DNA from: Oscillospiraceae bacterium
Lineage (GTDB): Bacteria; Bacillota; Clostridia; Oscillospirales; CAG-382
Direction of reading: 5' to 3'
Assembly: GCA_015064945.1 (NCBI GenBank)
Contig: SVRF01000004.1
Location: 1,383 to 65,382, forward strand
Length of the DNA: 64,000 nucleotides
The notes under the pieces are model-generated. The model had not been told where the DNA came from and did not search any database. It saw only the letters and a program-made list of their open reading frames with translations. A program made the position numbers and the translations under genes. The stretch's first letter is position 1. Each line of letters begins with the position of its first letter. This document shows positions 15,608 to 52,792 of the stretch, piece by piece.

Positions 15608-16513
15608 TTATTCTGCCAAATATTCAAAAGGACCTATGAGGTCTGCATCGTACTTAAGAACGTTTGCGGCATCAAGGCTGTTGATCGTGCCGTCAAAGTT
15701 TACGTCTGCCGCCAAACTTTGGTCGTCATCCAAAGTGATAATCTTTGCATCGTGGCGAAGGATATATGCCGCATCCAAGTTGTCGGTAGAGCCGTCGCCG
15801 TTAACATCACCTATCTGATAAAAGTTTATATCTATAGTCATATCGCTTGTAACATTACCTTCTGTAACGCTGTAGGATTTGAAGCCGAAGCCTTCAACAA
15901 GAGAGATCTCGCCATCGGCAAATGAGGGAAGAATATCGGCAACAGCGGTACCTGCGGGAACGCTTATCTGAGTTTCGCCTACAACAGAACCGCCAACACC
16001 TACGTTGAAGGTAACGGTATAGTTTTCAACAAAAACAACATTTTTGTTAACGTCGCCGTCCGCCTGTGTTGCAAGTCTTGTTCTGCCGTTGGAAAGGTTC
16101 CAAAGCTTAACGTTTATATCATCACCGGTAATATCTGTGGCTGTGCCGTTAACTGCGAAGCTTACCGTAAGAACAACAGTACCTTCCGCATAATCCTCGG
16201 TATACGCAAAAGCCACGGAAAGACCGCTTACACCGTCTCTGTCATAATCTTCGTAAACGGTGCGAGAGATATCGGAAGCAAGAGATCCTTCAACAAGGCT
16301 GAGCTTATCGGAAGTATCAAAAACTATCTTACCGCTTTGTACGCCTGCAGGCAAGGTTGCGGTAAGTACGGCTGTGTTGCTGTTTTTGTCAACAACCAAG
16401 TTAAGACTGTAGGTGGGATATGAAGCCGCAAAAGCCTGCGTACCGAAAGCGCTTATCACAACAGCAAGCACAAGAACAAAAGCGATTGAAAGAGACATAC
16501 CTTTTTTAAACAT
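15608..16513 (-). CDS. secreted cohesin-like + dockerin protein (putative adaptor scaffoldin)
   Basis: Signal peptide (AFA); N-domain aligns with the 9453 domain; C-terminal duplicated Ca-loop GDVNGDGSTDNLDA / ADVNFDGTINSLDA. Confidence 0.75.
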   Translation of the reverse strand: MFKKGMSLSIAFVLVLAVVISAFGTQAFAASYPTYSLNLVVDKNSNTAVLTATLPAGVQSGKIVFDTSDKLSLVEGSLASDISRTVYEDYDRDGVSGLSVAFAYTEDYAEGTVVLTVSFAVNGTATDITGDDINVKLWNLSNGRTRLATQADGDVNKNVVFVENYTVTFNVGVGGSVVGETQISVPAGTAVADILPSFADGEISLVEGFGFKSYSVTEGNVTSDMTIDINFYQIGDVNGDGSTDNLDAAYILRHDAKIITLDDDQSLAADVNFDGTINSLDAANVLKYDADLIGPFEYLAE

Positions 16514-16573
16514 ACCAAAACTCCTTTTTGTTTGTTTACAGCGGAATATTGCGCCGTAACCTCAATTTAAATC

Positions 16574-16602
16574 ATTTTAACATATACACAGGAAATTGTC
16601 AA
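16574..16602 (-). promoter_or_regulatory. sigA promoter
   Basis: TTGACA-17 nt-TAAAAT with TG extension. Confidence 0.7.
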
Positions 16603-16652
16603 TGCTGACAAAACGCACATAAACAACTCTGTGTTTTTGTGAATTTTTCACA

Positions 16653-18671
16653 TCAGAACAATTTCACAAGCCCTGCGTCGTGCTTAAGAACTTGGGAAGC
16701 ATCCAAGCTATCCACTTCGCCGTCGCCGTTAACATCTCCCACTGCCAACTGATATACATCAAGCCCTGTCAACTCTGCATCGTAGCGAAGAATGTATGCC
16801 GCATCAAGATTATCCGTTTCGCCGTCATTGGTAACATCACCTATGGCATAGCTTAGCTCTGCCGTGCAGGAGCTTATGATTTGAGGAACACCACATCTGA
16901 TCGTACCGGTTATGGGTGTTGCCGCGCCCGACAAGGCGTTCTCGGACAGATGATAGCTGTAACTTACGGTGTTGCCGTCAACGGAAAGCTCTGTGCCCAT
17001 AACGGTGGGGGCGCTTATTATTCCGCCGTTGCCGTTGCTAAGCACAAACATATAAGCTTGGTTGGGAATAAATGTGCCCGTATACTCTATCCTGTATGTT
17101 AAAGTCTGAGCCGCATTGTTGTAAACCACGGTCACATCTTTTACAGTGCAAGCATAAATTTCGTCACCTTCGGAGCTTTCATCGGAGCTTTCAGCTTCTG
17201 AGCTTGTTTCTTCTAAATTCTCCGCATATTCCGCACGGACAACCAAGTTCATACCGCCGACGGTTATTGTCGTTGACACAGCACTTGCATCGGTTATCTC
17301 TCCGATACCTTCCACTATAGCCCAAGTGTCAAAGCGCATCCCCGCCTCGGGAGCGTCCGCAACAACTCTGATAACAGCGCCTGATTGGTAATAATCCTGT
17401 CTGTCATCGGGGTGGACCGTGCCGTTTATGACATCTACGCTGTAAAGCTGAGTAAAGCTTCCTCTTACCGTAGCGTCACCGTAAACGGTTACCGTAGTAA
17501 TTTGTGCCGTGGGGTCTGCTATTACAGCGTTGCCCTCTACAGTCCAGCCATCGAAAATGTATGCTCCACCTTCTGTTGCAAAGCGTATAGTTACCTTTTC
17601 TCCGTAGCTGTATGTGCCGCTTCCGTCACCGCCCACTACGTTAAGGGTGTACTGTGAGTCTGTATAGGTGGTTTTTATTATTACGTTGCTGTTTACGGTA
17701 AGTGCGGTGGTGCTTGCACTTGCGTCGGCAACTGTGCCGCCTACCTCTACCTCCCAGCCTGTAAACTCTTTACCTGTTACGGAGTCGGCAATTATTTCTA
17801 TTACGTCTCCCGCCTTGTAGTATTCCTTTACATCAGACTCCGCTATCTTACCGCCTGTTATGGTGACGGTGTAAAGCTCGGTATAATTTGCCTTTACCGT
17901 TGCGTTGCCGTATACGGTTACTGTAGTGCTTTGTGCGGTAGAGTCTGCTATTACAGCGTTGCCCTCTACAGTCCACCCCTCAAACTCGCAATTAGTGCCG
18001 GGGGCAGGGATAAACTCTATATCTACAACACTGCCGTAGCTGTGCACACCGCTACCTGTGCCGTCCACCACATTAAGGGTGTACTGCGATGCAGTATAAA
18101 CGGCGTTAACCGTCATATCCGATGTAACGGCGGAAAAATCTTTGTCCCACTTCACAAACTCATAGCCGGCAACGAGGGGAGCATCGGGGGCTGCGGCGGC
18201 GGTGCCGTAATCCACGGTTTGGGTTTTTAAAACCGTGCCGTCTTTGCCCACAAAGCTTACAGTAGGGTTTTTATCTATTATTACCACATCTACTGTATAA
18301 GGGGATATAATGTAAGACTGTGTACTCCGCACCGTTACACGCAAGGGCTTTGCGGCACTTGTAACAAGGCTTGTATCCACAGGAAAGCTATAGCTGAAGC
18401 TGTTATTTGCCACACCAAGCTGAGTGCCGTTAACGGTACGCATAGATATCTGCGTGCCGTTGGCGTTATTGAGTATAAACACATAGCTTTGGTTTGGAAT
18501 AAATGTGCCGCTGTATTTCACCGTGCAATTTACGGTTTCGGTCTGCGTATTATATACCGCAAGCATAGAGCTTACCTCGCAAGCGGATGTCGCATTTACG
18601 CTGATACCGCCCACCAAGCCCAGCATAAAACAAAAGCACAAAAGGCAAGCAGTTATCTTTTTAATTTTCAT
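16653..18671 (-). CDS. secreted dockerin protein with InlB-B/bacterial-repeat-like stalk and a duplicated unknown domain
   Basis: Signal peptide; repeats YTLNVV.G.GSG.YSYG..V.I...F.GW; two copies of a Y.GTFIPNQ.Y.F.L.N.NG domain; C-terminal dockerin GDVTNDGETDNLDA / GDVNGDGEVDSLDA. Confidence 0.8.
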   Translation of the reverse strand: MKIKKITACLLCFCFMLGLVGGISVNATSACEVSSMLAVYNTQTETVNCTVKYSGTFIPNQSYVFILNNANGTQISMRTVNGTQLGVANNSFSYSFPVDTSLVTSAAKPLRVTVRSTQSYIISPYTVDVVIIDKNPTVSFVGKDGTVLKTQTVDYGTAAAAPDAPLVAGYEFVKWDKDFSAVTSDMTVNAVYTASQYTLNVVDGTGSGVHSYGSVVDIEFIPAPGTNCEFEGWTVEGNAVIADSTAQSTTVTVYGNATVKANYTELYTVTITGGKIAESDVKEYYKAGDVIEIIADSVTGKEFTGWEVEVGGTVADASASTTALTVNSNVIIKTTYTDSQYTLNVVGGDGSGTYSYGEKVTIRFATEGGAYIFDGWTVEGNAVIADPTAQITTVTVYGDATVRGSFTQLYSVDVINGTVHPDDRQDYYQSGAVIRVVADAPEAGMRFDTWAIVEGIGEITDASAVSTTITVGGMNLVVRAEYAENLEETSSEAESSDESSEGDEIYACTVKDVTVVYNNAAQTLTYRIEYTGTFIPNQAYMFVLSNGNGGIISAPTVMGTELSVDGNTVSYSYHLSENALSGAATPITGTIRCGVPQIISSCTAELSYAIGDVTNDGETDNLDAAYILRYDAELTGLDVYQLAVGDVNGDGEVDSLDASQVLKHDAGLVKLF

Positions 18672-18761
18672 ATTTTTCCTCCGAACATATTTTTTTCGGC
18701 ATTGTTTTCAAGTTGATTATACCATAACAACAGACATTTGCCAATAAGTATTTTTTGGCTT

Positions 18762-19400
18762 TTAAAGCAATTCCTCAAACAAGCACCACGGTGTGCCAAC
18801 GGGCTTGGCGGTAAACTCCGTCATTTTGCCCATCCACGGAAAGCTTAGGCTATAAGACCAAAGCGCCATACCTTCTTTCTCGGTTCTGCCGCCGTATTTT
18901 CCGTCGCCGTACAGGGGCAAACGGCGGGAGGAAAACTGTACACGTATCTGGTGAGTGCGGCCTGTGTGCAACTGCACGTCGAGCAGTGACAACTGAGCGC
19001 CGTTATGATTAACTGTAGACAACAGCTTGTAATAGAGTGAAGCCTCTTTTACCCCTGCCCTGCTGTGCTTAACAACAAAGCTTTTGTTCTTTCTGCGATC
19101 GTGATACAGCAGATCCTTTAATACAGCCTCGTCAGCATCGGGAATGCCGCGCACCACGGTTAAATACCGCTTTATAAACTTACCCTCCGTTATGGCGGAA
19201 GAAAGCTTTGCCGCCGCAGAAGAGCTTTTGGCATAAACCATAAGTCCGCCTGTTCCTCTGTCCAGCCTGTGTACGGGAAAAATATCGCAGTCTAACCGTT
19301 CACGCAGAATTTGGGGCAAGGCGCCATCTCCGTCCTCCGACAGTAGACCTGCAGGTTTTATGCAGACCACAAAATCTTTGTCATCAAACAAAACCGTCAT
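18762..19400 (-). CDS. RluA-family RNA pseudouridine synthase
   Basis: KPAGL, VHRLDRGTGG, TGRTHQIRV, GDGKYG. Confidence 0.92.
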   Translation of the reverse strand: MTVLFDDKDFVVCIKPAGLLSEDGDGALPQILRERLDCDIFPVHRLDRGTGGLMVYAKSSSAAAKLSSAITEGKFIKRYLTVVRGIPDADEAVLKDLLYHDRRKNKSFVVKHSRAGVKEASLYYKLLSTVNHNGAQLSLLDVQLHTGRTHQIRVQFSSRRLPLYGDGKYGGRTEKEGMALWSYSLSFPWMGKMTEFTAKPVGTPWCLFEELL

Positions 19401-19468: not shown

Positions 19469-22084
19469 TTAGGGTTGAGTAGCTATAAACTTACGCATAA
19501 TTACCAAATCCGTCGTGTTAACAGCAGTGTCACCGTTGCCGTCGGAAGCCTTAAGGCCTGCCGAGGTTACGCCCGTCCGTTTGGAAATATATTTCCTTAG
19601 CATAAGCATATCGGTGGTATTACAGGTTGCGCTGCCGTCCAAGTCCATAGCAACAACAACTTCAATAACCGTGTCATTATAGTTTACTGTGTAGCCCGTA
19701 CCTATATAGCCGGAGCTTACTGCGTTGCCTGCCAAGTTCTTAACGGTAACATCCACGGTGAACAGAGCCTTGAAGGTATTTACATCCATAGCTAAGTCGC
19801 CGCCGTAGAGATAGCTTTCATCCATAGAATAACCATCTGCCGTTGCACTTGTGGTAAGTTCAAGAACGGGGTCAGGTTCCGGCTCGGGCTCGGGAACTAC
19901 AACATTATCTGAGCCGTAAACCTCTATTTCGGTAAACGCAGTTACGTAAGAAGCCGAAGTGAAGGTTACCCTTACGTATCTTGCGGTAACCCATGCGAAG
20001 TCTACCTTATGGGTGTAAACATTGCTTAACGCAGAGCCGTTTACATAAGAGTAAAGCAAAGTATCAACAAGGTTTTCTACATAATGATAGGTTACACCGT
20101 CGGTGGAGTATTCGATTTCCGCACTGTTGGTCTGATAGTCGCCAACACTGCTGCCACTGTCACCGAAGTCACAAATAGCAACCATACGGAAATTCCTTTG
20201 GGCGCCCAAGTCGATGGTCGTACCAAACTTCTGTGTGGTACCCTGGAAGGAAACGTAAGGAGTGTCCGTAGTGTTATAGCTATCCGTTGCCTTTGAGCCG
20301 TCGGTAAGCTTGGTTCTGTTTGTATCCTGCTGGTTGGTGTACTGATAGGTTATATCGGTACTGCCCTTCCAGGTGGTTGTATAGGACTTATTAAGTGCGT
20401 AGTTGGTAAGTCCGGTGGTATCTATTTCACCTGCGGTTTCGTAGTTAGCTTTAATTACCGCATCGGAACTGCCAATAGTAAAGGTGGTATTGTAAGAGTT
20501 AGCGTCACCGAAAGTGCCGCTACCGCTTTCGATAGACCAATGGGTGAAGGAGTAGCCTGTTCTTGTACTTGCGGAGATGTTAACAACCGTGCCTGCCGCA
20601 TATCTGCCGCTGCCTACGCCGTAGGTAATGGAAAGGTCAAAGTCTGTACGGTAGGTTGCTTCCAGCTCGATATCGCTGTTAAGAACCTTAACAGTAGTGG
20701 TTTTAGCTGTCTTGTCGGTAATGGTTGCAATACCGTTCTTAACCTCCCAAATATCAAAGAGACCTGCGCTGGAGGTTGCAGCGGTTACCGTAAAGGTCTC
20801 ACCCTTGGCAAGATACTTAACAGTGCTGCCGAAGGTGGTATCGTTCTTAACGCTTACCTTATAAACTCTGGTAAGAGTGCTGATATTTGCGGTGCCGCCG
20901 TTATACGTAGCGGTAGAACCGGAAATATTGGTAACGTTTACTATGCTGCCGGAAGATGTTCTGTAAGTACCGTAGTCATAGTCGTTTCTTACGTATGTAA
21001 AGTTATCAAGGTCTACCCAACCAACAGTACCGTTGGAGAGAGTTACCTTACCCCAGTCCCAACCGGTGATCTTAGCGTCAACAACGGTGCCGGAAGCGAT
21101 GGTGCCAACAGAACCGGTTGCGGAGTTACCTGCACGGTAAACGGTTACAGAGGAGTTTGCCTTGTAAAGACCGGGCTTGTAATACTTATAGTTGGGGTTG
21201 TAATATGTGTTCTTCACAGTATCGGTAGAAACATAAGAACCGCCGAATGCCTTGTAATAGTCATACATTCTGTCACGGAACACCTTATAATAAGTCCCAT
21301 CAACGCTGAAGGAAGCGTTGGTACCGAACACGTATCTCATCTGTATAGGACAGTTCTTACCGGCAGCGTGGTAGTGGGTGTAAACCTGAGTATAGGGGTT
21401 GAAGTTGAGCTTTACGCAGATAAACGCAACGAGCATTGCGAGGTATGTAGCGGTCTTATCAAAGTGAGATGCGTACCAGTCGTACATATCCGCCTGATTC
21501 CAGTGTTCACCGGAGAAGGTAGCATCTGCAGGGAAACCGTCGGTTGCGGTTTCAATACCTATACCGGTGCTGTTGGACAAATCGGAAATATTATATTTAC
21601 TTTTCTCGGTTGTAGAAGACCAATAGTTACCGCCTGCGTGCCAGCCCATTTCGTTAACGGGAAGCATCTGATAAAGGCCGTCGTTGCCGCAGGTGTAGTG
21701 CCAAGAAACGGAAGCGGTAGTAGTTCTACCGTAATTGTGGTTTGCAAGAGAAGTAGAAGTTACAGGGTATGCACCTGTATTGTGTACAACAACGTACTTC
21801 ATAGAGTTTATTGTGCCGGGGCGGTTTTTCTTGCCGGAAACTATAAACTCGGTCTTCATCTGTATTTCGTGGCGTGTACCTTCTGCCATCATAAAGGAAG
21901 TGTTATTTGTAAGCAAATCGTTATCAGGCAGTTGGAGATAATCGGGCACATAGATCTCAGGCGCTACAAAGTCCGCATCCGCAATAGCGGAAACAGTGGT
22001 AGTAGCAAAAGAGAATGTGCAAACGGTGCTTATCATCATAGCAACGACAAGCATAAAGGAAATTAAGCGTTTGTGATAATTCAT
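19469..22084 (-). CDS. secreted N-acetylmuramoyl-L-alanine amidase (Amidase_2) + SH3b + repeats + F5/8C-like + X-module/dockerin
   Basis: VVVHNTG, SWHY, GWHAG, N..GIGIE and THYHAAGKNCP Zn-amidase motifs; SH3b WGKV...GWV; TIDLG..ARYVRV..EIEVY discoidin-like; dockerin DLDGSATCNTTD / DGNGDTAVNTTD. Confidence 0.85.
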   Translation of the reverse strand: MNYHKRLISFMLVVAMMISTVCTFSFATTTVSAIADADFVAPEIYVPDYLQLPDNDLLTNNTSFMMAEGTRHEIQMKTEFIVSGKKNRPGTINSMKYVVVHNTGAYPVTSTSLANHNYGRTTTASVSWHYTCGNDGLYQMLPVNEMGWHAGGNYWSSTTEKSKYNISDLSNSTGIGIETATDGFPADATFSGEHWNQADMYDWYASHFDKTATYLAMLVAFICVKLNFNPYTQVYTHYHAAGKNCPIQMRYVFGTNASFSVDGTYYKVFRDRMYDYYKAFGGSYVSTDTVKNTYYNPNYKYYKPGLYKANSSVTVYRAGNSATGSVGTIASGTVVDAKITGWDWGKVTLSNGTVGWVDLDNFTYVRNDYDYGTYRTSSGSIVNVTNISGSTATYNGGTANISTLTRVYKVSVKNDTTFGSTVKYLAKGETFTVTAATSSAGLFDIWEVKNGIATITDKTAKTTTVKVLNSDIELEATYRTDFDLSITYGVGSGRYAAGTVVNISASTRTGYSFTHWSIESGSGTFGDANSYNTTFTIGSSDAVIKANYETAGEIDTTGLTNYALNKSYTTTWKGSTDITYQYTNQQDTNRTKLTDGSKATDSYNTTDTPYVSFQGTTQKFGTTIDLGAQRNFRMVAICDFGDSGSSVGDYQTNSAEIEYSTDGVTYHYVENLVDTLLYSYVNGSALSNVYTHKVDFAWVTARYVRVTFTSASYVTAFTEIEVYGSDNVVVPEPEPEPDPVLELTTSATADGYSMDESYLYGGDLAMDVNTFKALFTVDVTVKNLAGNAVSSGYIGTGYTVNYNDTVIEVVVAMDLDGSATCNTTDMLMLRKYISKRTGVTSAGLKASDGNGDTAVNTTDLVIMRKFIATQP

Positions 22085-38050: not shown

Positions 38051-39832
38051 TTAGTATATGATGTTTTTTCCGGAGCAATGCTTCCTTATCATCAGCAGGT
38101 CGGCGGTATTTACGGCACTGTCGCCTGTAAGATCTGCCGCCGCCTTTTCCAATGCGGAAGGAGATGAAGCGGTAAGAAGCTTACGTACAGCTACCATATC
38201 CGTGGTGTTTACGGCACCGTCGCCCGAGAGGTCGCCGGGGATAACGACCCTAACGCTGTTGAGAACATCGCCTGCCCCATCATACTGAACAACGGTGCAG
38301 CCCGTGCCGATATAGCCCATATCTGCAAGAGCATTACCTCCAACGGCAAGCACGCTTACATCGCATTTAAACTGCGCCTTAAGGTCTGCAGCGGAAACAC
38401 CCATTGCCTTTACCGTTACAAAGCTATCGTCAAGGCTGTACTTTGAGCCGTCAACCAGCTCGAAGGGAGCATCAAACTCAGAAGCCAAGGTAACAACGGT
38501 ATATGTGCCCACATCGTAGCTTGTACCGTTTTCCGTATAAGTATAGCTGATTTTATAACCGTCCTTAAGCACCGCACTGCCTGCAACTGCGTTGCCTGCG
38601 GCATCTTTAACGGTAACGGTACAGTCGGGCATACCGTCTATGGCGTGCTGCGCGGTAGTACCGTAGATAACACGGATATCATCACCGCAAAGCTTTTTCA
38701 TATTCTTGATAAGTGCAGGTCTCTGAACTTCCCAGTTAGCATTATAACCCGCATCGTCGGGGTGACAGCTGTCTATAAGACAATCGGGAGAGAGACCCTC
38801 TGCCTTCCACATGGTATAAAGGTCAATAACAAGATTATTTTCCTCTGCCGCAACCTGACGCATACAGTCAATAAAGCTGTCAAGATATGCAACCTCGCCG
38901 CCGAAGGAGCTGTAGTCGCCTTTATCAAACACGCCGCCCACGGTGGTGGACATATCAATAACATTAGCGGTCATAAACAGTGTGGTTGCACCAAGAGCGT
39001 TATTTTTGGTGCGGATACCTCTGAGCGCAGTCTTGTATTTTTCCAGTAAGGAGGTTGTGGGTGCCGCAGAATAAGCGTCGTTAATACCGAAAGAAACTAT
39101 CACTATCTCGGGGTTATGAGAAGCTACATAGGTATCATAACGGGCAGAAAGAGATGCCCAGGAGGTATCGCCCCCGAAGCCTGCATTGATAACGGTGGTG
39201 TGGAAATAGTCGCCCCAAACAGAGGTCCAACCGCCGCCTGCCGTAATACTGTCCCCCTCGGCAACTATTTTTCTGTTACTGTAAGGAGTAACCTTTGGAA
39301 GGGTAGGTCTTACTGTTTCCACGGTAACGTAGGAGTTGGAAGAGTAGTCACTGCCGCCCCATGTACCTGTTATGCTTAAAGTTTTGTTAGCAACATCTAT
39401 GTTGTGAAGGTAAAGCCTGTCCCCTACCCTTACATGTTGCCACACGGACCAGTTAGCCCTTGAAATAGAAGAACCTGCGGAAGTGAGAGGTGCATAACTG
39501 AACAGTATGCCGATATAGCCCTGCTCTACCACCTTAGTATAAGAACGGTGATTTGCAACCTTGGTTACCACCTCGTAGTATCCGCCCTCTGCATTATACT
39601 TTGCATAAGCCTTTTCGTAATAAAGACCGCTTATACTGTTACCGGGGGTAACTATGGAAAAATGGTTTGCGGTGACACTGTCCCAAACACCGTTGAACTT
39701 GGTAACAGTAAGCTTACCTATGTTTTCTACAACTTTGTCACCTTCTATTCGCTTATTTTCCTCCGCACCCGCAACAACGCACATGCCAAGCAGCATTATT
39801 GCGGAAAGAACAAAAGCAATAATTCTTTTCAT
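38051..39832 (-). CDS. secreted SGNH/GDSL hydrolase + X-module/dockerin
   Basis: Blocks GDSIT, NAGFGG, FGIND, DSCHP; GYIGTG then dockerin GDLSGDGAVNTTD / DLTGDSAVNTAD; unknown N-terminal domain. Confidence 0.85.
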   Translation of the reverse strand: MKRIIAFVLSAIMLLGMCVVAGAEENKRIEGDKVVENIGKLTVTKFNGVWDSVTANHFSIVTPGNSISGLYYEKAYAKYNAEGGYYEVVTKVANHRSYTKVVEQGYIGILFSYAPLTSAGSSISRANWSVWQHVRVGDRLYLHNIDVANKTLSITGTWGGSDYSSNSYVTVETVRPTLPKVTPYSNRKIVAEGDSITAGGGWTSVWGDYFHTTVINAGFGGDTSWASLSARYDTYVASHNPEIVIVSFGINDAYSAAPTTSLLEKYKTALRGIRTKNNALGATTLFMTANVIDMSTTVGGVFDKGDYSSFGGEVAYLDSFIDCMRQVAAEENNLVIDLYTMWKAEGLSPDCLIDSCHPDDAGYNANWEVQRPALIKNMKKLCGDDIRVIYGTTAQHAIDGMPDCTVTVKDAAGNAVAGSAVLKDGYKISYTYTENGTSYDVGTYTVVTLASEFDAPFELVDGSKYSLDDSFVTVKAMGVSAADLKAQFKCDVSVLAVGGNALADMGYIGTGCTVVQYDGAGDVLNSVRVVIPGDLSGDGAVNTTDMVAVRKLLTASSPSALEKAAADLTGDSAVNTADLLMIRKHCSGKNIIY

Positions 39833-40036: not shown

Positions 40037-42529
40037 ATGAAAAAACTGTTGTCACTGGTTTTGGTACTTGCCCTTTGCATTCCCGTTATTGCAATAAACG
40101 GCATTACCGAAACAACGGTTGCGGCTGCTTCCAGCCACGTTTACATGATCGTAACCAACCCCGGGCAAGACATGAACACGCAGATGAACATAAGCTTTCA
40201 CTCTGACTACACCTACACAGGCTGTTACGTAGAGTATACCAAGGCTACCGACACCTCCTTTGCCAACGCAACAAAGGTTACGGGTAGCTATGACAGCGAT
40301 GACTATATGTGGTTCTACAACAGATACACCACATCCTCTACCTCATCTGCAAAGTTCACAACCAAATTTTTAAACTACAATGTTGACCTCAGCGGTCTTA
40401 CTCCCAACACCAAGTACATTTACAGAATTTGTGACGGTGCCGGTGCTTACTCCGAGACTTATGCCTTCAAAACCGCAGGTCAGAGCGAGTTCTCTATGAT
40501 TTGGCTCTCCGACATTCACATAAGCCACACGGAAACTACGAAGCAAACAAAATATCAGAACGCTATAAACTGGGCTGAAAACAACACTAAATACGAAATC
40601 GGCTTAAATATCAACACCGGTGACGTTGTTGCCAGCGGTGACAGATATAAGTTCTGGCAGCAGTTCTACTCTCCCACCGTTTACAAGAAATACCCTTACG
40701 CTTCCACAGTCGGCAACCACGACCTTTATGACAGTATGATGGATGACGACCCCGAATATACTCAGTACTGGAAGGGCGGCGAATACTTCCGTATTACTGC
40801 AAATTATCCCGATAACGGTTATGTTCAGACATCCTCCAGAATAAGCGGTTATCTTGTAGATGACGGTTATTCTGCCCACGCAAGCAAGTCTTCCTCTACC
40901 CTTTTCGACCCCGGCTCCGGTAAATATGCAGGTAAATACATAACCGGTGCAAAGGAAGACCTTAACGGCAGAACATACTGGTTCCTTTACAACAGAATAC
41001 TTTATATAAGCTTTGACTATTATGCAATGACCGCAACATCTGAAAAGCAAACCGCTTTTGACTGGGCATACGATGTTATCGATGCTAACAAGGGCAAGTA
41101 TGATTATCTCATAGTATCCGAACACCTTAACCTTATTTGGGGCGACGGTGGTAACAGCAGATATTATACTGATTACCAGAATTTCCTTGATACCGCAAAT
41201 GTAGATATATTCCTTTGCGGCGATAACCATATTTATTACCGTTCCGACAAGCTTTACGGCGGTGCAAAGACAAGTGACCCCGAAAAAGGCACGGTAATCA
41301 TTCAGGCACCCGCTATTACCAATGTTTCTACCTATCCTACCTACACAGGCGCTAAGGAACCCTACGGTGTTTCCAGATATTCTTCTGCTGACTATGTCGG
41401 TGCGTTTGCAATAGATGTTGACAGCAGCGGCATGCACTTTAAGCTTGGTATAGGCTCCGGCACGGGCGCTAATATGGCTACCCACGAAACCTTTACCATT
41501 CCCAAGAAGACCCGTTATACCGATGCTGCTACCGGCATCTACACCGCTACAAGCGCGCTTACAGTTAAGGAAACCTCCGATGCTTCCGCAAAGACACTTA
41601 CCTCCATCCCCGCAGGCACAGTATTTGAAGTTAACGAAGGTAACGGTCAGTGGGGCAGAGTTCGCTACAACGGATTTACCGGTTGGGTAAACCTTGGCAC
41701 TATGTCCCCCACCCACTACACAACAGACGTAAATACACCCGAACAGTTTGAAATCTCCAACGTAAACGTTGGTTACGCTTCCTCTCATATGTTGGATGCA
41801 TATACCCCTGCTTACGGCAGTACCATTGCAAACGGCGGCTGGCTGTTCAGCGGCAACGTAACCGTTACGGGCGTAAGAGACAGCAACGGCGCATACAAGG
41901 TTACTGCACAGGATACAAGCGGTAACGCAAAGAACACCACCGCTATTCCCGCTGACGGTTGTGTATTTCTTATTAACAAGAGCTACGCAAATTATGCAGC
42001 GTTTATGGACGCGCTTGCAGTTGGTAAATACTTTACCTTAGACTCTAACAGAATAACCGTTTACACTGCTAATCCCGGCGAAGCCAATGTAACACCTTCT
42101 ATCCCCGGTACGGAGCCTGAGCCTGAGCCCGAGCTTGAGCTTACCGAAACCGCAGTAAGCAACGGCTACTCTATGGACGAAACCTATCTTTACGGCAGTG
42201 CTGTCGGTCTTAACATTGCTTCTATTAAGGCTTTATTTACCGTAGATGTTACCGTTAAGAATTTGACTGGCAGCGAAGTAAGCTCCGGCTTTGTAGGTAC
42301 AGGTTATACAGTAGTTTATATGGACACCGTTATAGAGGTAGTTGTTGACTTTGACTTGGATGGCAGTGCAACCTGTAACACCACCGACCTGCTTATGCTT
42401 AGAAAATACATTTCCAAGCGTTCCGGCGTTACGGATGCAGGTATTAAGGCGGCTGACGGTAATGGTGATACCACCATTAACACGACAGACTTTGTAATTT
42501 TGCGCAAGTTTATTACTTCCCAACCCTAA
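40037..42529 (+). CDS. secreted purple-acid-phosphatase-like metallophosphoesterase (FN3-like + MPP) + SH3b + X-module/dockerin
   Basis: LSGLTPNTKYIYRI FN3-like; SDIH, TGDVV, VGNHD, CGDNH; SH3b WGRVRYNGFTGWV; dockerin DLDGSATCNTTD; ATG 40037 after GGAAAGG. Confidence 0.85.
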   Translation: MKKLLSLVLVLALCIPVIAINGITETTVAAASSHVYMIVTNPGQDMNTQMNISFHSDYTYTGCYVEYTKATDTSFANATKVTGSYDSDDYMWFYNRYTTSSTSSAKFTTKFLNYNVDLSGLTPNTKYIYRICDGAGAYSETYAFKTAGQSEFSMIWLSDIHISHTETTKQTKYQNAINWAENNTKYEIGLNINTGDVVASGDRYKFWQQFYSPTVYKKYPYASTVGNHDLYDSMMDDDPEYTQYWKGGEYFRITANYPDNGYVQTSSRISGYLVDDGYSAHASKSSSTLFDPGSGKYAGKYITGAKEDLNGRTYWFLYNRILYISFDYYAMTATSEKQTAFDWAYDVIDANKGKYDYLIVSEHLNLIWGDGGNSRYYTDYQNFLDTANVDIFLCGDNHIYYRSDKLYGGAKTSDPEKGTVIIQAPAITNVSTYPTYTGAKEPYGVSRYSSADYVGAFAIDVDSSGMHFKLGIGSGTGANMATHETFTIPKKTRYTDAATGIYTATSALTVKETSDASAKTLTSIPAGTVFEVNEGNGQWGRVRYNGFTGWVNLGTMSPTHYTTDVNTPEQFEISNVNVGYASSHMLDAYTPAYGSTIANGGWLFSGNVTVTGVRDSNGAYKVTAQDTSGNAKNTTAIPADGCVFLINKSYANYAAFMDALAVGKYFTLDSNRITVYTANPGEANVTPSIPGTEPEPEPELELTETAVSNGYSMDETYLYGSAVGLNIASIKALFTVDVTVKNLTGSEVSSGFVGTGYTVVYMDTVIEVVVDFDLDGSATCNTTDLLMLRKYISKRSGVTDAGIKAADGNGDTTINTTDFVILRKFITSQP

Positions 42530-42705: not shown

Positions 42706-45219
42706 ATGAAAAAGCTGTTAGCTATTCTCCTAACATTGGCAATGTGTATACCTTGCTTTGGGGCTACAAGCCTTCCTGCTTCGGCAATAGTCTCTCCCCA
42801 CGTATACATGATTGTCACCAACCCCGGCGAAGATATGAACACTCAGATGAACGTTGGTTGGCACTCCGATTTCACCTACACCAACTGCTTTGTTGAGTAC
42901 ACCACTGCTGACGATACTTCTTTTGCAAACGCAACTAAGGTAAACGGCAGCTATGATGATGACGACTATTTGTGGTTTATGGACCGTTCCACCACCAACG
43001 CTATAGGTCCAGAGTTCCACACCACACCCTTCCTCAACTACGGTGCAGAACTTGACGGTCTTACCCCCGATACCGATTACATTTACAGAATTTGTGACGG
43101 CGAAGGCGCTTATTCCGAAACCTATGCGTTCAAGACCGCAGGTCAGGATGAGTTCTCCATTTTGTGGCTCTCCGATATGCACCTTGACAGAAACTCTGCA
43201 AAAGAAGCTAAGTACCAGTCAAGTATCGATTACGTTAGCGCTCTTGCAAAGTACGACATCGGTCTTTACTTCAACACCGGTGACGTTGTTGCCAGCGGCG
43301 ACAGATACAACTACTGGCAGTATCTTTATGATTTTGACATTATGAAGAACGTTACTTACGCCGCTACCGTAGGTAACCACGACTTGTTTGACAGCATGAT
43401 GGACGATGACCCCAACTACACCTCTTTCTGGGCTTCTTCCGAATATTTCCGCATCGCTGCTAACTATCCCGACAACGGCTATACCCAGACCTCTGCAAGA
43501 ATAAGCAATTATCTCAACAATCACCTTTATTCCGACTTTATAAGCCAGCCTGCAAACAAGCTTGTGCTTATGGACGAAGGTACCCTTACCGGCAAAAAGA
43601 TCTCCGGCGCTTATGAAGATACCAACGGCAGAGCTTATTGGTTTATTTATAACAGAATTTTGTTTATCGTATTTGACTACTATGCAATGACCTACAATGC
43701 AGAAATAGGCAACGCATTCAACTGGGCTTACGATATTATCGATGCTAACAAGGGCAACTACGACTATCTCTTCTGCACAGAACACCTTAACATCTGGTGG
43801 GGCGACAGCGGTACAAGCAGATACTATGACCGTTATCAGGCATTCCTTGACAACGCAAACGTAGACGTATTCTTTGCAGGCGATAACCACATTTATTTCC
43901 GCTCTCACTCCCTCGTTGGTGGTGAGGTCAACACCGACCCCGAAAAGGGCACCTATTTCCTGCAAGCACCCGCAATAACCAACACCTCCACCTATGGTCA
44001 CGCTTCCGGTCCCAGCGGTGTTGGCGCTAACTGCTATGCTGACGCAGACTATCTCGGCGGCGTTATGATAGACGTTGACAGTGACGGCTTGCACTTTACC
44101 GTTGCTACCGCTACAGGCGACGGCTCTAACTACTCTGTATATGAAAAGTTTGACCTTCCCAAGAAGGTACGCTATGCAGATGCTACTCAGGGCATCTACA
44201 AGCTCAGCACCGATATGCCCCTTTACGAAACCACCGACGTTACTTCCACCGTGCTTGAAACCATCCCTGCAGGTTCCGAAGTAGAGGTTTACGAAGCTAA
44301 CGGTATTTGGGGTAAGATCCGTTACAACAACAGAAGCGGTTGGACCAGACTTGCTAACGTAGAGCTTTTGGACGAAGTTGACAATCCTTCCTCCTATCCC
44401 AGCTATGCTCTTACCGGCGGTTACAACGCTAAGTACACCGCAGAAGGTTTGTACGCTTACACCCCCGCTTATGGTGCGACCATAGCTAACGGCGGTTGGT
44501 CCTTTGCATACAACACCGTTTGGATAGCTACCGAACAGGAAGACGGTACTTACATCATCACCGAAATCAATGCTGAAAGCGGCGTTCCCAAGAAGGATAC
44601 TCCCACCTCCGACACTACCGTTGTACTTATGGGTGGCAGCGGCACCTCAGCAGAGCTTGCAGATACCCTTATTCTTGGCTATCAGTTCACTCTCGACTGG
44701 GCACAGGGCGAGATCCACAGCGTAGGCGAGTTTGAACAGGAAGACGACGGTGAAGATTCTTCCTCCGAGGAAGAAACCTCCGATGAACCCTCCTCTTCCG
44801 AAGAAACCTCTGACGACATTTCTTCCGATGAAGAAACCTCCGACGACATTTCTTCCGATGAAGAAACCTCCGACGCTGCTTCCTCCGACGAAGAAACTTC
44901 CGACATCGCTTCTTCCGAAGAAACCTCTGACGACGCTTCCTCCGATGACGCTTCCTCTGAGGACAGCTCTGAAGATGACTCTTCCGAAGACGTAGCTGAC
45001 GTAGCTTACGGCGACGTAAACGGCGACGGTCAAATTAACAGCCTTGACGCTGCACAGACTCTTAAGCACGACGCCAAACTCATCACCCTTGATGACGCTG
45101 CACTTACCGCTGCCGACGTAAACGGTGACGGCGAGGTTAACAGCCTTGACGCCGCACAGGTTCTTAAATTTGATGCTAAGCTTATCAACATTTTTCCTGT
45201 TGAAGAAGCCGCTGAATAA
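42706..45219 (+). CDS. paralogous secreted metallophosphoesterase + SH3b + acidic linker + dockerin
   Basis: Closely similar to 40037 over ~650 aa; C-terminal SSDEETSDD repeats and dockerin GDVNGDGQINSLDA / ADVNGDGEVNSLDA. Confidence 0.85.
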   Translation: MKKLLAILLTLAMCIPCFGATSLPASAIVSPHVYMIVTNPGEDMNTQMNVGWHSDFTYTNCFVEYTTADDTSFANATKVNGSYDDDDYLWFMDRSTTNAIGPEFHTTPFLNYGAELDGLTPDTDYIYRICDGEGAYSETYAFKTAGQDEFSILWLSDMHLDRNSAKEAKYQSSIDYVSALAKYDIGLYFNTGDVVASGDRYNYWQYLYDFDIMKNVTYAATVGNHDLFDSMMDDDPNYTSFWASSEYFRIAANYPDNGYTQTSARISNYLNNHLYSDFISQPANKLVLMDEGTLTGKKISGAYEDTNGRAYWFIYNRILFIVFDYYAMTYNAEIGNAFNWAYDIIDANKGNYDYLFCTEHLNIWWGDSGTSRYYDRYQAFLDNANVDVFFAGDNHIYFRSHSLVGGEVNTDPEKGTYFLQAPAITNTSTYGHASGPSGVGANCYADADYLGGVMIDVDSDGLHFTVATATGDGSNYSVYEKFDLPKKVRYADATQGIYKLSTDMPLYETTDVTSTVLETIPAGSEVEVYEANGIWGKIRYNNRSGWTRLANVELLDEVDNPSSYPSYALTGGYNAKYTAEGLYAYTPAYGATIANGGWSFAYNTVWIATEQEDGTYIITEINAESGVPKKDTPTSDTTVVLMGGSGTSAELADTLILGYQFTLDWAQGEIHSVGEFEQEDDGEDSSSEEETSDEPSSSEETSDDISSDEETSDDISSDEETSDAASSDEETSDIASSEETSDDASSDDASSEDSSEDDSSEDVADVAYGDVNGDGQINSLDAAQTLKHDAKLITLDDAALTAADVNGDGEVNSLDAAQVLKFDAKLINIFPVEEAAE
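44758..44990 (+). repeat. imperfect ~30-bp tandem repeats encoding an SSDEETSDDI linker
   Basis: TCTTCCGATGAAGAAACCTCCGACGACATT-like units. Confidence 0.85.
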
Positions 45220-49280: not shown

Positions 49281-49286
49281 TCACCT

Positions 49287-49317
49287 TAAGGGGTCGGCTG
49301 TAAGGTCGACCCCCTTA
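49287..49317 (+). terminator. hairpin after metK
   Basis: TAAGGGGTCGGC...GTCGACCCCCTTA; weak U-tract. Confidence 0.55.
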
Positions 49318-49342
49318 TAGTATTACAAAAGGAGGACAGCAG

Positions 49343-51523
49343 GTGGAAAAGCTTGAAGGTGTAGTTGAACATATTGTATATACAAACCCCGAAAACGGCT
49401 ATACCGTTTGCCTGCTGGACTGCGGCAACGGCGAACCGATCACCGCCGTAGGATTGCTTCCCTCCACGGTTGAAGGGGAAAAGCTTGTAGCAACGGGAGC
49501 TTGGACAAACCACCCCAGCTTTGGCAAGCAATTTCGCATTGAAAGCTATGAAAAGCAACTGCCCGACGGTGCGGAGGGGATGTATAAATTCCTATCCTCG
49601 GGCTATATAAAGGGGCTGGGACCCATTACCGCAATGCGATTAGTGGAGAAGTACGGGGAAGAAAGCTTTGACGTGCTGTCCAATCATCCCGAATGGCTTG
49701 CGGAATTCAAAGGAATAAGCCGTAAGCGTGCCCTTGCCATAGGCGAGGATTTTAAGCTGAAGTTCGGTATGCGTGACGTAATAATGTTTTGCAGTAAGTA
49801 CTTCGGCACGGCTATCTGCACCAAGATATACAAGCGCTACGGCGGCGGTGCGGTGGAGCTGATAAAAGCCAACCCCTATATGCTTTGCGACGATATCATG
49901 GGCATAAGCTTTGAACGTGTTGACAAGATGGCGGCGGATTTGGAGTTTCCTCCCGATGCCCCCGAGCGTGTTAAAAGCTTTATAAAGCACGTGCTTTTAA
50001 CAGCGGCTTATAACGGCGGGCACTGTTATATGCCTATGGAGGAGCTTACGGAAACGGTAGCCCGCAGCTTGGATATAGACCCTGTATACGCTGAAAGCTG
50101 TATGAACGGGCTGGCACAGCTTGGTCAGCTTGTCCTTGGAAGCGGCAGATGTGCCCTTAAGCTTTACAGCGAGGCGGAGCGTTTTATAGCGCAAAAGCTT
50201 GCCTCTATGGCAAGGTGTGAGCTCCCTTACAGAATAGCAGGCATAGACGACAGCATAAGTTTTTTGCAAAAGAAGTACGACATAGAATATGCACCCAACC
50301 AAAAGCGTGCAATAAAATGCGCCACCAGCAACGGCGTTACCGTTGTTACGGGCGGACCGGGCACAGGTAAAACCACGGTTATAAAAGCGATACTGGAGAT
50401 ATTTGCCGCATCGGGCATAAGCTTTATGCTGTGCGCACCTACGGGACGTGCCGCTAAGCGGATGAGCGAAGCGTCGGGCAACGAAGCCAAGACAATACAC
50501 AGGCTTTTGGAAACCAAGTTCAACAGCAAGGGTGAGCAGATATTTGTGCACGACAGGCACAATCCCCTGCCCTACAGCGCCATTATTGTGGACGAGGTCA
50601 GTATGGTTGACGCTTTATTGATGGAAAACCTGCTTAGGGCAATACGTGACGGCTCCTACCTAATCCTTATCGGGGACAGCGACCAGCTGCCGCCCGTAGG
50701 TGCAGGTAACGTGCTTTCGGATATTATTGCCTCCGGAGTGTTCCCTGTAATAAGGCTTAACGAAATATTTAGGCAGGCGAGAGAAAGTCTTATCATTGTT
50801 AACGCCCACAGCATAAACGCAGGTGAACTGCCCGAGCTTGCGGACAAAAAGAAGGACTTTTTCTTTATGGAACGGCAAAACGCCGAGGAGATGACAGAGC
50901 TTATAAGTCAGCTTTGCAAAACCAGACTACCCAACCGCTACGGAATAGACCCCAAAAGCGACATACAGATAATAACCCCCACACGAAAAGGGCCGATGGG
51001 CACTGCCGCCCTTAACGCCGCTTTGCAGGATGCGCTTAACCCCAAAGGAAAAGGAAAAAACGAGTGTAAGATAGGCAGCACTCTATACCGTGAGGGTGAC
51101 AAGGTGATGCAGACCAAGAACAATTACGATATACCTTGGAATGCGGACGGTGTTGACGGTACAGGGGTTTTTAACGGAGATATAGGCATAATTAAAAGGC
51201 TTGACGCCCACGACCAGACCGCCCTTATTAAGTTTGATGACCGCTTGGCGGAATACGATTTTTCTATGTTTGAGGACGTTGACCACGCCTATGCAGTTAC
51301 GGTGCATAAAAGTCAGGGCAGTGAGTACCCCATTGTTATTATCCCCTTCTTTGATTTTCCGCCTATGCTTATGTACCGCAGTCTGCTTTATACAGGCGTT
51401 ACCCGTGCAAAGCAAATGTTTATAGGCATAGGTAAGTCGGCACGGCTTGCACAAATGGTTATGAACGACCGCAAGCTGCTACGAAACACCACACTTAGAG
51501 AATTGCTTGAAAGTATAGAATAA
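49343..51523 (+). CDS. recD2: ATP-dependent RecD2-like DNA helicase
   Basis: IKGLGP HhH; GGPGTGKTT, APTGRAAKR, DEVSM, GDSDQLP, AVTVHKSQGSE. Confidence 0.93.
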   Translation: MEKLEGVVEHIVYTNPENGYTVCLLDCGNGEPITAVGLLPSTVEGEKLVATGAWTNHPSFGKQFRIESYEKQLPDGAEGMYKFLSSGYIKGLGPITAMRLVEKYGEESFDVLSNHPEWLAEFKGISRKRALAIGEDFKLKFGMRDVIMFCSKYFGTAICTKIYKRYGGGAVELIKANPYMLCDDIMGISFERVDKMAADLEFPPDAPERVKSFIKHVLLTAAYNGGHCYMPMEELTETVARSLDIDPVYAESCMNGLAQLGQLVLGSGRCALKLYSEAERFIAQKLASMARCELPYRIAGIDDSISFLQKKYDIEYAPNQKRAIKCATSNGVTVVTGGPGTGKTTVIKAILEIFAASGISFMLCAPTGRAAKRMSEASGNEAKTIHRLLETKFNSKGEQIFVHDRHNPLPYSAIIVDEVSMVDALLMENLLRAIRDGSYLILIGDSDQLPPVGAGNVLSDIIASGVFPVIRLNEIFRQARESLIIVNAHSINAGELPELADKKKDFFFMERQNAEEMTELISQLCKTRLPNRYGIDPKSDIQIITPTRKGPMGTAALNAALQDALNPKGKGKNECKIGSTLYREGDKVMQTKNNYDIPWNADGVDGTGVFNGDIGIIKRLDAHDQTALIKFDDRLAEYDFSMFEDVDHAYAVTVHKSQGSEYPIVIIPFFDFPPMLMYRSLLYTGVTRAKQMFIGIGKSARLAQMVMNDRKLLRNTTLRELLESIE

Positions 51524-51532
51524 TGCAAATAT

Positions 51533-51590
51533 AACAGCATGAGCCCGACCATACGGTCGGGCTCATGCTGTTTCTTTCTTTTTCTTTCAA
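51533..51590 (+). terminator. intrinsic terminator
   Basis: AACAGCATGAGCCCGACC-atac-GGTCGGGCTCATGCTGTT + T-rich tail. Confidence 0.85.
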
Positions 51591-51694
51591 ACTATGTAAA
51601 CCTACTTGCTTTTGCTTAGCGAAAATATCATCAAAGTCAAAACCAAGCCTACAATGGCGGCACAAGTTATAATTATCTTTTTGCTCATCGCAAT

Positions 51695-52792
51695 TTACAC
51701 TCTGTCAGGGTATGGGATACACTTGGTAATAAGCAGTGTAACGCCGACTTTATCCATATACACGCATTGATAGGGGCTTGTGTCATAAGGAGTTTCGTAA
51801 AAAGCTACGCAGAATACTTCTTTTGCATCGTCATAGGAGAATACTACGTGACGGTATTCGTCGGGGTATTCCGCCTTTGCCCTCTCCTCAGCGGCTTCAA
51901 GGCTGTTGATTTCCGGAAGCGGTGTATCTATAGGCTGTGTATTAACAAAGCCTTCGGTTATACGCTCCAGCTCATTGGCGGCGCCGCGGTGGGTGCCTTC
52001 CATTACTGCGCTCCAATCAAAGCGGTTTGCGCCGTAGCTGTAAAACCTGTGCTCTTTTTCATAGTGTATGCCAAAGCGGTCCAAATCCTCAACCGTCACT
52101 CTTCCGTTTTCAAAAGCGGTGATCAGGTCTTCGCTTGTGCCGTTTGAATAATAAACGGTGATGTAATCGCCTTTCCAGCAGGTGAAGAGATAGGCGTAAG
52201 TATCGTCCTCGTAAAAGTATTGTATGGCCTCGCCCACGCCCTTGCCGTAGGAATCGTCTACTATATTTGTTACTTCGGAAGCGTTGAAACAGCGCTCGGC
52301 TCTTATATAATCTATATCATAGCTATCTAAGTCGGCAATAGTTACGATACCCGTTACAAAGGCATTCTTTACGTTTTCACTTGTGCCGTCGGAATAATGC
52401 ACTGTGATATAACGGCTCATTATGCAAGGGAAGTAATAATGATAGTCGTCATCCTCATAAAAGAATTCAAGTGCATCGTCAAGTCCCTTGCCGTAGGAAT
52501 CGTCAACAATGTTTATTACGGTTTTTAGAGCCGTAAGCCCTGCATCATATCTGAGTATGCCTGAGGCATCAAGGCTGTTAACCACGCCGTCTTCGTTATA
52601 ATCGGCGCAAGCAAGTTTCGCACCCTCAAGGCTTATTAACTTAGCGTCGTGCTTTAGCACCTGCGCCGCATCAAGACTGTTTACGGTTCCGTCAAGGGTT
52701 ACGTCCCCAATGGGAAAGAGTGACGTTGCGAACGCCGTAAGGTTAACGCAAAGGGTAAAAGCAACAATTCCGATAAAAATCTTTTTAATCAT
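51695..52792 (-). CDS. secreted protein with N-terminal dockerin, two ~75-aa unknown repeats and a C-terminal unknown domain
   Basis: Signal peptide (AFA); GDVTLDGTVNSLDA / ADYNEDGVVNSLDA; repeats NIVDDSYGKG..A...FYEDD.Y.Y.F...YITV.YS.GTSE. Confidence 0.8.
   Translation of the reverse strand: MIKKIFIGIVAFTLCVNLTAFATSLFPIGDVTLDGTVNSLDAAQVLKHDAKLISLEGAKLACADYNEDGVVNSLDASGILRYDAGLTALKTVINIVDDSYGKGLDDALEFFYEDDDYHYYFPCIMSRYITVHYSDGTSENVKNAFVTGIVTIADLDSYDIDYIRAERCFNASEVTNIVDDSYGKGVGEAIQYFYEDDTYAYLFTCWKGDYITVYYSNGTSEDLITAFENGRVTVEDLDRFGIHYEKEHRFYSYGANRFDWSAVMEGTHRGAANELERITEGFVNTQPIDTPLPEINSLEAAEERAKAEYPDEYRHVVFSYDDAKEVFCVAFYETPYDTSPYQCVYMDKVGVTLLITKCIPYPDRV

Follow-up and report, generated by a model that had tools for sequence, protein, structure and literature searches.

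Cohesin-dockerin systems have mostly been studied as plant-fibre machines built on multi-cohesin scaffoldins. Several dockerin specificities within one genome are established for Ruminococcus flavefaciens FD-1 (PMC2930009, PMC5301203; here and below, papers are cited from excerpts of their text), and dyads of an X module and a dockerin (X-Doc) that bind anchoring cohesins are established for the clostridial type II and the R. flavefaciens type III systems (PMC5301203, PMC3413522). Here, we analysed the dockerins of an uncultured gut member of the Clostridia, starting from a window of 64,000 nucleotides, positions 1383-65382 of contig C30 in a 2.02-Mb, 80-contig, 84%-complete assembly (G000). 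Eight proteins encoded in this window carry dockerins of two classes, A and B, and the class B dockerins follow an X module of their own kind. The same classes were found genome-wide, and they likely represent two docking addresses with putative binding. We lean slightly towards the reading that the bacterium uses two dockerin-based address tags, where the partner of X-Doc would be a membrane cohesin and class A would be served by another subset of cohesins.

Pfam Dockerin_1 (PF00404) matched all eight open reading frames (ORFs) in which a preliminary description of this DNA had seen dockerins (E 2.2e-13 to 1.8e-7; 31.7-50.6 bits against a curated cut-off of 22.9) and nothing else in the window. 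The loop motifs by which that description had told two classes apart are present in all repeats. In 8/8 repeats of the four class A dockerins, loop positions 10-11 are occupied by S-L or N-L, positions 17-18 by L-K or L-R and positions 20-21 by D-A. In the four class B dockerins, positions 10-11 are T-T in 6/8 repeats and T-A in 2/8, and positions 17-18 are R-K in 8/8. The motif G(Y/F)(I/V)GTG occurs upstream of 4/4 class B and 0/4 class A dockerins. Swapping residues at these dockerin positions changes specificity. As had been pointed out, the classes differ (T-T/R-K versus S-L/L-K) at positions treated as recognition residues, where C. thermocellum dockerins have S(T/S) at 10-11 and K(R/K) at 17-18 and those of A. 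cellulolyticus have S(I/L) and R(X) (PMC3413522).

For the genome-wide analysis, a dockerin hidden Markov model (HMM) was seeded from the eight window dockerins and iterated three times, and all genome dockerins were aligned to it. An X-module HMM was built from six seed copies in four iterations; both models derive from this genome's own sequences. PF00404 gave 93 matches at E<=0.01 and our own dockerin HMM 95 hits in 92 ORFs, including 89 full dockerins, defined by coverage of at least 46 of the 61 HMM positions. Two 12-residue calcium-binding loops (D1, N/D3, D5, D12), each followed by a helix, run through all 89, with the second loop degenerate in a few class B members such as C31_27162. 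Applying a motif-based rule (L11 plus D20-A21) for class A and taking the remaining full dockerins as class B-like, we obtained 51 class A (S/N-L at 10-11, L-K/R at 17-18, D-A at 20-21) and 38 class B-like dockerins (canonical S/T-T and R-K). Motif-free clustering by average linkage of pairwise identities (k=2) recovered the split, with 51/51 class A in one cluster and 34/38 class B in the other. Mean pairwise identity is 62% within class A, 34% within class B (range 15-83%) and 28% between them, and the first and second repeats are 71% identical in class A and 37% in class B. Class A is therefore a true, tight class, while class B brings together the genome's varied dockerins of canonical type, which are mostly X-linked. 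Two class B-like proteins (C72:15298-19140 and C56:6374-9967) show an odd variant: positions 17-18 are L-N, a DYNQVLN(C/V/F)AKGR helix is repeated, and the second loop departs from the canonical form. They may represent a third specificity.

An X module lies directly upstream (gap of at most 25 residues, E<=0.01) of 27/38 class B-like dockerins compared with 0/51 of class A (Fisher p 2.5e-14, overstated because paralogues are not independent). The absence of the module from class A thus extends from the window to the genome. That class B is always preceded by it is true for the window (4/4), but not for the genome. A relaxed search gave weak matches (E 1e-9 to 3e-3) ahead of 6 of the 11 remaining class B-like dockerins, one of which coincides with Pfam Big_2, and non-significant ones (E>0.05) for C53 and C40_24190. 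The clearest cases without an X module are C33 and C6_8341, in both of which the dockerin is located right behind the signal peptide, and C75.

The X module is about 65-85 residues long and predicted to be beta-rich with one short helix. It does not end in G(Y/F)(I/V)GTG as first described: the motif sits 12 or 18 residues ahead of the dockerin, and two further beta-strands come after it. AlphaFold2, run with a 24-row alignment on the X-Doc of ORF 38051, returned a confident two-domain model (predicted local distance difference test score (pLDDT) 92.6, predicted template modelling score 0.83) where the last X strand continues into the first calcium loop without a linker. The X module modelled alone reached a pLDDT of 88.3. 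Structural searches gave a clear answer for one half of the dyad only. The dockerin half of the model matches 2ccl_B, a C. thermocellum type I dockerin, with Z 10.4 and a root-mean-square deviation (rmsd) of 1.7 over 61 residues, and eight more dockerin chains at Z 8.2-10.0, including 4dh2_D (10.0) and 3ul4_B (9.4). The X module alone, for which the preliminary description had proposed a structural search, had no clear match. Its best hits were Z 4.3 by VIA-align (the Ig-like C-terminal domain of RgpB; ubiquitin-like and Ig-like folds at Z 3.1-3.6 are too weak for a fold name), E 0.28 by Foldseek and a score of 0.77 in the ESM Atlas (Cadherin-like), below the level that counts as more than a lead. 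Pfam yielded nothing meaningful on the module alone at E up to 10, and a profile of 24 copies found nothing below E 0.35 among PDB sequences and no X-Doc chain at E<=10. Superposition of the whole dyad on 2b59_B, 4wi0_B and 5g5d_B resulted in rmsd values of 12-14 A and on 4iu2_B in Z 5.5 and rmsd 5.1; chains of 2b59, 3kcp, 4wi0 and 5g5d are not among the 50 X-only matches listed (best Z 4.3). The lack of a clear fold match for the modelled X module does not by itself prove a new fold. Keyword searches of the open-access literature (including PMC11557425) returned no description of the X module or of the gene pair described below, which is a weak absence.

We then asked how far the X-Doc unit is conserved in other genomes. 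Searching 1.84 billion representative proteins with an X-only profile gave 1217 clusters at E<=1e-3 and 87 at E<=1e-10. Among the best 150 clusters, 148 match the X HMM, and in 144 of these a dockerin follows X directly while the other four look truncated. None of the 144 has the class A signature. X-linked dockerins worldwide follow the canonical pattern, with variation (S/T/A at 10, T/A/S at 11, K/R at 17). The order of X and dockerin is also kept in the N-terminal pairs of C23_77866, C3_4094 and C41_3182, and near-identical units are present in gut metagenome-assembled genomes (Eubacteriales bacterium, Clostridia bacterium). In an order-wide sample of 121 genomes from 86 genera, X was found in 15 genomes, 13 genera and at least nine families. 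The two genomes of this genus contain 28 and 25 copies, G087 contains 12, and the remaining X-bearing genomes 1-5 each. Class A, by comparison, reaches 85 bits only in G000 (50 dockerins at >=85 bits) and the same-genus genome G008 (38), with a best score of 71 bits elsewhere in the sample. Because class A is confined to one genus at this level, it is a genus-restricted expansion and X-Doc the older, widespread form.

The genome encodes six cohesin modules, one per protein, and an iterated genus cohesin HMM found none beyond these six Pfam cohesins. Four same-genus genomes (91-99% complete) have 2-6 cohesins each, again one per protein; no multi-cohesin scaffoldin was found in them or in G000, and all six cohesin proteins have counterparts in G004. 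We also considered the low cohesin count as an artefact of the 84%-complete assembly, which is ruled out by the counts in these more complete genomes. One cohesin protein (C31:26162-27124) consists of a signal peptide, the cohesin, an acidic linker and a C-terminal transmembrane (TM) helix with a basic tail. Its gene lies directly downstream of an X-Doc amidase gene, with two more class B genes close by, and a TM-anchored cohesin gene directly follows an X-Doc gene in all six genus genomes where the locus is available. The same order was found in G131, G032, G049 and G062, which belong to four other families. There, the TM cohesin protein (L158-L161) has a signal peptide, a cohesin, two Cadherin-like (PF12733) domains, a linker and the TM helix; in the genus of the window the acidic linker takes the place of the Cadherin-like domains. 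In G078, a cohesin-SLH protein has as its neighbour a giant protein that combines a cohesin with an X-Doc. Eight order genomes hold just one X module, and in six of them a cohesin is encoded within about 2 kb of it. Pfam cohesins occur in 14/15 X-bearing versus 54/106 X-less genomes, related genomes that are not independent. G087 (81% complete, 12 X modules) had no Pfam cohesin match. Based on gene adjacency and co-occurrence, we propose the anchored monovalent cohesin as the X-Doc partner. A complex prediction of C31:26162-27124 (six-orthologue alignment) with the X-Doc of ORF 31159 gave ipSAE values of 0.23 and 0.23 against a mark of 0.32 and, run without controls, counts neither way.

Two further observations concern these loci. 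The X-Doc encoded just upstream of the membrane cohesin (C31:27162-29360 and orthologues, L138-L143) has a degenerate second calcium loop (e.g. S-I-I-E-K-G...) in 6/6 genus genomes, followed by a retained S-T-(A/S)-D-L-L-H-x-(R/E)-K helix, a pattern that could reflect a single binding mode. Further, C72:15298-28800 looks like a second cohesin-dockerin locus. Its class B genes, arranged in a row, encode a cohesin-bearing X-Doc protein of 1281 residues, two further X-Doc proteins (one Amidase_3, one GBS_Bsp-like) and a cohesin-dockerin protein of 287 residues.

By Pfam annotation of all dockerin ORFs, class B is enriched in peptidoglycan hydrolases (Amidase_2 x2, Amidase_3 x3, Glucosaminidase, CHAP, Peptidase_C39_2 x2) and also includes GHL10 (x3), phosphatases, GDSL esterases, GH43 and a nuclease-like protein. 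The assignment of the window amidase to this class was correct, with Amidase_2 and endolysin PHROGs matching it. For ORF 31159, the earlier label of bacteriocin-like found no support: apart from its dockerin, it matched only Phage_RBD_prop exactly at cut-off, and NCBIfam and PHROGs gave nothing. Class A cargo comprises BspA-type leucine-rich repeat (LRR) proteins (x4), NAGPA (x2), phosphatases, 5'-nucleotidase, GH5, CBM9, subtilases, Amidase_3 (x2) and many proteins without a family. A clean functional cargo split between the classes was considered and is ruled out by six enzyme families with both tags. Most HMM-detected X-Docs (25/27) reside on cohesin-free proteins, namely amidases, GDSL proteins, phosphatases, GH43, GHL10, peptidases and proteins of unknown function; a cohesin and a clear X-Doc share one protein only in C72_15298, and C72_27940 does likewise with a weak X match. 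The neighbouring phosphatases ORF 40037 (class B) and ORF 42706 (class A) share 53% identity over 674 positions and lose their similarity at precisely the point where either the X-Doc or the acidic linker and dockerin begin, and the GDSL proteins ORF 38051 (class B) and C47_19860 (class A) are 66% identical over 479 positions. The tethers differ as well. Class A sits on flexible acidic linkers or straight on a domain and class B on the rigid X module, and the 40 residues ahead of the dockerin contain more than 50% D/E/S in 18/50 class A but 0/38 class B dockerins.

Taken together, these results are consistent with the following arrangement. The first tag, X-Doc, is a rigid unit of about 140 residues in which a canonical type I-like dockerin is fused without a linker to X; the unit is old and occurs widely across the order. 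As its partner, the monovalent cohesin that a C-terminal TM helix anchors in the cell membrane (here C31:26162-27124) is the most likely candidate. With such a partner, X-Doc cargo, including many peptidoglycan hydrolases and the window amidase, would be displayed on the producer's own surface. The second tag, class A, is very uniform and internally symmetrical, restricted to the genus at high score and marked by a hydrophobic Leu at positions 11 and 17 and the conserved D-A at 20-21. It is attached directly or via long acidic Ser/Asp/Glu linkers and most likely docks to other members of the set of six cohesins. Since the same enzyme types and even neighbouring paralogues carry either tag, a single activity may be delivered to two sites. 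More tentatively, and a little short of an even chance in our judgement, we propose that the X module defines a widespread X-dockerin dyad family without a prior name; that the dyad and the membrane-anchored monovalent cohesin encoded directly downstream form a two-gene surface-display cassette across several gut Clostridia families; that in this genus the plug has spread to about 30 enzymes, many of them peptidoglycan hydrolases; and that a second, genus-specific class has arisen, by which paralogous copies of an enzyme go to two different sites.

A number of points weigh against this arrangement. Gene adjacency is weak evidence of binding, and the membrane cohesins of the other families are not all matched by the genus cohesin HMM, so that the cassettes count as analogous rather than orthologous. 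About 30 X-Doc proteins would have to compete for a single membrane cohesin or else have further partners. Eleven of the 38 class B-like dockerins lack a clear X module, and positions 10, 11, 17 and 18 vary among X-linked dockerins worldwide. Class B is heterogeneous by mean identity and may hold several specificities. Both tags are found on purple-acid-phosphatase-like, GDSL, Amidase_3, NAGPA, Peptidase_S8 and Cthe_2159 proteins. Finally, because five of the six cohesin proteins themselves end in dockerins (three class B-like, two class A), the wiring could be hierarchical instead of consisting of two parallel networks.

These points lead to the question of whether two networks, as proposed in the preliminary description, are enough. 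The classes are real and X is tied to class B, but two may be too few considering the identity within class B (34% versus 62% in class A) and the six different monovalent cohesins. It is possible, though on balance unlikely, that class A represents one specificity and class B several distributed over the six cohesins, perhaps in a hierarchy with cohesin-plus-dockerin adaptors as in R. flavefaciens. Candidates for such class B specificities would include the GDLSGDG...RKHCSG subgroup, the DLDGSATCNTTD subgroup and the odd L-N variants C72_15298 and C56. The 15-83% range of identities with visible subgroups and the presence of dockerins on five of six distinct monovalent cohesin proteins, all with counterparts in G004, would fit this arrangement, and R. 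flavefaciens FD-1 provides a precedent with about 11 dockerin subgroups and four verified specificities (PMC2930009, PMC5301203). On the other hand, the X module and the S/T-T, R-K pattern are common to the class B subgroups, and the silhouette score was no better from k=2 to k=6.

It is less probable still that there is no orthogonality at all and that both classes bind the same cohesins, their differences reflecting ancestry and tethering by a rigid X module or a flexible acidic linker rather than an address. In sequence comparisons, the solved type I dockerins matched are the same for the two classes, and either class can be found on the same enzyme families, in genomes of a genus with only 2-6 cohesins each. 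However, both repeats consistently set the classes apart at 10/11 and 17/18, the positions that separate C. thermocellum from A. cellulolyticus dockerins (PMC3413522). In addition, the 51 copies of class A have retained a mean identity of 62%, suggesting that a single surface is under selection, and neighbouring paralogues share their catalytic part while their docking units are wholly different. We consider it quite improbable that X-Doc is a calcium-dependent stabilising or wall- or glycan-binding unit with X as a small binding module and the neighbouring cohesins serving other dockerins: X is without known fold or function, X-rich G087 (81% complete, 12 X modules) is without a Pfam cohesin and peptidoglycan hydrolases, which have to be targeted to the wall, are frequent among X-Doc cargoes, but the dockerin half is canonical (Z 10.4, intact calcium loops, S/T-T and R-K helices), an anchored cohesin gene lies directly downstream of an X-Doc gene in 6/6 genus genomes and four other families, and 14/15 X-bearing genomes have cohesins. 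For the same reasons, the canonical type I fold (Z 10.4 to 2ccl_B) and X-Doc genes beside anchored cohesins in many genomes, a non-docking EF-hand pair, which the preliminary description had named as its possible refutation, is unlikely.

The docking units of the window are listed in Table 1.

Table 1. Dockerins and X modules in the window (positions of the 64,000-nucleotide stretch).
Feature	Position	ORF	Strand	Evidence
Class A dockerin, C-terminus of 301-residue protein of unknown function	15638..15817	15608-16513	-	Dockerin_1 E 2.6e-10; loops N-L/L-R, S-L/L-K; without X module
Class A dockerin, C-terminus of 672-residue InlB-B-repeat (Flg_new_2) protein	16668..16850	16653-18671	-	Dockerin_1 E 1.2e-8; Flg_new_2 E 1.3e-23; loops N-L/L-R, S-L/L-K
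X module (19673-19864) and class B dockerin (19475-19657), Amidase_2 protein	19475..19864	19469-22084	-	Amidase_2 E 1e-16; Dockerin_1 E 2.5e-8; endolysin PHROGs; X HMM E 1.6e-20; GYIGTG 12 residues ahead of dockerin
X module (31381-31572) and class B dockerin (31165-31347), 811-residue two-repeat protein of unknown function	31165..31572	31159-33594	-	Dockerin_1 E 1.8e-7; Phage_RBD_prop exactly at cut-off; X HMM E 3.3e-14
X module (38279-38464) and class B dockerin (38066-38245), GDSL lipase/esterase	38066..38464	38051-39832	-	Lipase_GDSL_2 E 1e-20; Dockerin_1 E 4.3e-10; X HMM E 2.2e-24
X module (42134-42325) and class B dockerin (42341-42523), purple-acid-phosphatase-like protein	42134..42523	40001/40037-42529	+	Pfam matches; X HMM E 9.7e-19; paralogue of adjoining class A ORF 42706
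Class A dockerin of purple-acid-phosphatase-like protein, preceded by Ser/Asp/Glu-rich linker	45001..45183	42706-45219	+	Pur_ac_phosph_N, Metallophos, Dockerin_1 E 2.2e-13
Class A dockerin, N-terminal, right after signal peptide, 365-residue protein	52535..52714	51695-52792	-	Dockerin_1 E 2.1e-9, residues 29-79

Several of these proteins contain additional repeated or partial modules. The GDSL ORF 38051 has a second, partial X-like stretch at 38540-38677 on the minus strand (E 4.9e-11), about 100 residues upstream of the real X-Doc, and the class A GDSL protein C47:19860-22448 has one at residues 397-443 (E 6.6e-11), distant from its dockerin. The X fold, or part of it, is thus not limited to the pre-dockerin position. 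The class A protein encoded at 51695-52792 (minus strand, 365 residues) and the adjoining 800-residue VWA-domain lipoprotein-like protein at 52829-55231 (minus strand) each contain two copies of one module of about 70 residues without a Pfam match, which reads approximately ...NIVD...YY(F/Y)...(V/I)(H/Y)YSDGTSENV...G.V(T/S)I.DLD... in both adjacent genes. In the class A ORF 16653-18671 (minus strand), a module of about 100 residues (...Y(S/T)GTFIPNQ(S/A)Y(V/M)F(I/V)L(N/S)N(A/G)NG...) is duplicated, with one N-terminal copy and one just ahead of the dockerin, separated by InlB-B-type repeats and an acidic linker.

In this genome and its genus, about 90 dockerin proteins are set against only six single-cohesin proteins, and the cargo consists mainly of wall hydrolases, phosphatases, esterases, LRR proteins and proteins of unknown function. 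If our reading is true, it would offer a compact, testable model of how enzymes are addressed to two sites, with the A/B paralogue pairs as natural controls. It would also add a new X-module family to domain libraries, improve the annotation of more than 1000 protein clusters and establish a simple cassette of X-Doc and membrane cohesin, with which surface display in these bacteria may have begun. For designer scaffolds, two presumably non-cross-reacting plug types and a rigid X-Doc unit would become available. If, instead, both classes bind the same cohesins, only ordinary dockerin sequence diversity would be left.

Compared with known systems, the repertoire as a whole resembles a R. flavefaciens-type one in that sequence groups differ at putative recognition positions. 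In FD-1, as here, many dockerins fall into sequence groups (groups 1-6, with four verified specificities), and these groups predict different cohesin partners (PMC2930009, PMC5301203). Some groups are lineage-exclusive and others of the 'clostridial' type I-like kind in both organisms, and one FD-1 group directs its cargo, peptidases among it, to a cohesin on the cell surface (PMC2930009, PMC5301203). In contrast to FD-1, we found six monovalent cohesins and no multi-cohesin scaffoldin in G000 and the four same-genus genomes, the lineage-specific class has an S-L...L-K.DA signature, about 30 enzymes of the putatively surface-directed class have an X module, compared with two or three scaffoldin-type proteins there, and the cargo is mostly not plant-fibre enzymes.

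With the type II X-Doc dyads (C. thermocellum CipA X-DocII, 2b59/3kcp; A. cellulolyticus X60-Doc), the present unit shares an X module directly upstream of the dockerin, both forming one unit, and the separation of X-linked dockerins from the other dockerins of the genome as a distinct sequence class (PMC3413522). The type II partner is an anchoring cell-surface cohesin, as we propose here, although the putative anchor is a TM helix rather than SLH repeats. The X module described here is shorter (about 65-85 residues) and has no sequence match to any PDB chain, no structural match to 2b59, 3kcp or 4wi0 turned up outside the dockerin half (whole-dyad rmsd 12-14 A), and the dockerin is type I-like. 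Whereas type II dyads are carried at the C-terminus of a scaffoldin, the dyad studied here is found on enzymes, sometimes N-terminally, with 25/27 on cohesin-free proteins. The R. flavefaciens ScaB/CttA X-Doc on ScaE (4iu2) likewise attaches proteins to a monovalent surface cohesin, as X-Doc presumably does here, and a cysteine peptidase also carries one there (PMC5301203). However, its dockerins have three long insertions that buttress a stalk-like X (PMC5301203), whereas class B dockerins have canonical spacing and about 60 residues; 4iu2_B matches the whole dyad only at Z 5.5 and rmsd 5.1, and ScaE is sortase-anchored.

OlpA and OlpC of C. thermocellum (3ul4, 4dh2) are single-cohesin anchors that display individual enzymes on the cell via type I dockerins, as is proposed here, and their dockerins are among the best structural matches (Z 9.4-10.0). 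They bind type I enzyme dockerins directly. In contrast to the present system, they are SLH-anchored, the enzyme side lacks an X module and they constitute a minor side branch of a large scaffoldin-based cellulosome. The Ruminococcus bromii amylosome is similar in belonging to gut Clostridia and in having few cohesins and non-cellulolytic cargo, and the dockerins of Amy12, Amy16 and Amy10 match class A weakly by sequence (E 7e-5 to 1.4e-3). It differs in that its cargo is GH13 amylases (PMC4611034) and that the R. bromii 'X modules' are, in the excerpts cited, CBM37-like and not dockerin-associated (PMC5814915). Distinctive of the system described here are thus the kind of X module, its attachment to a type I-like dockerin, its presence on about 30 enzymes, a TM-anchored partner suggested by synteny, a genus-specific second class and the A/B paralogue pairs.

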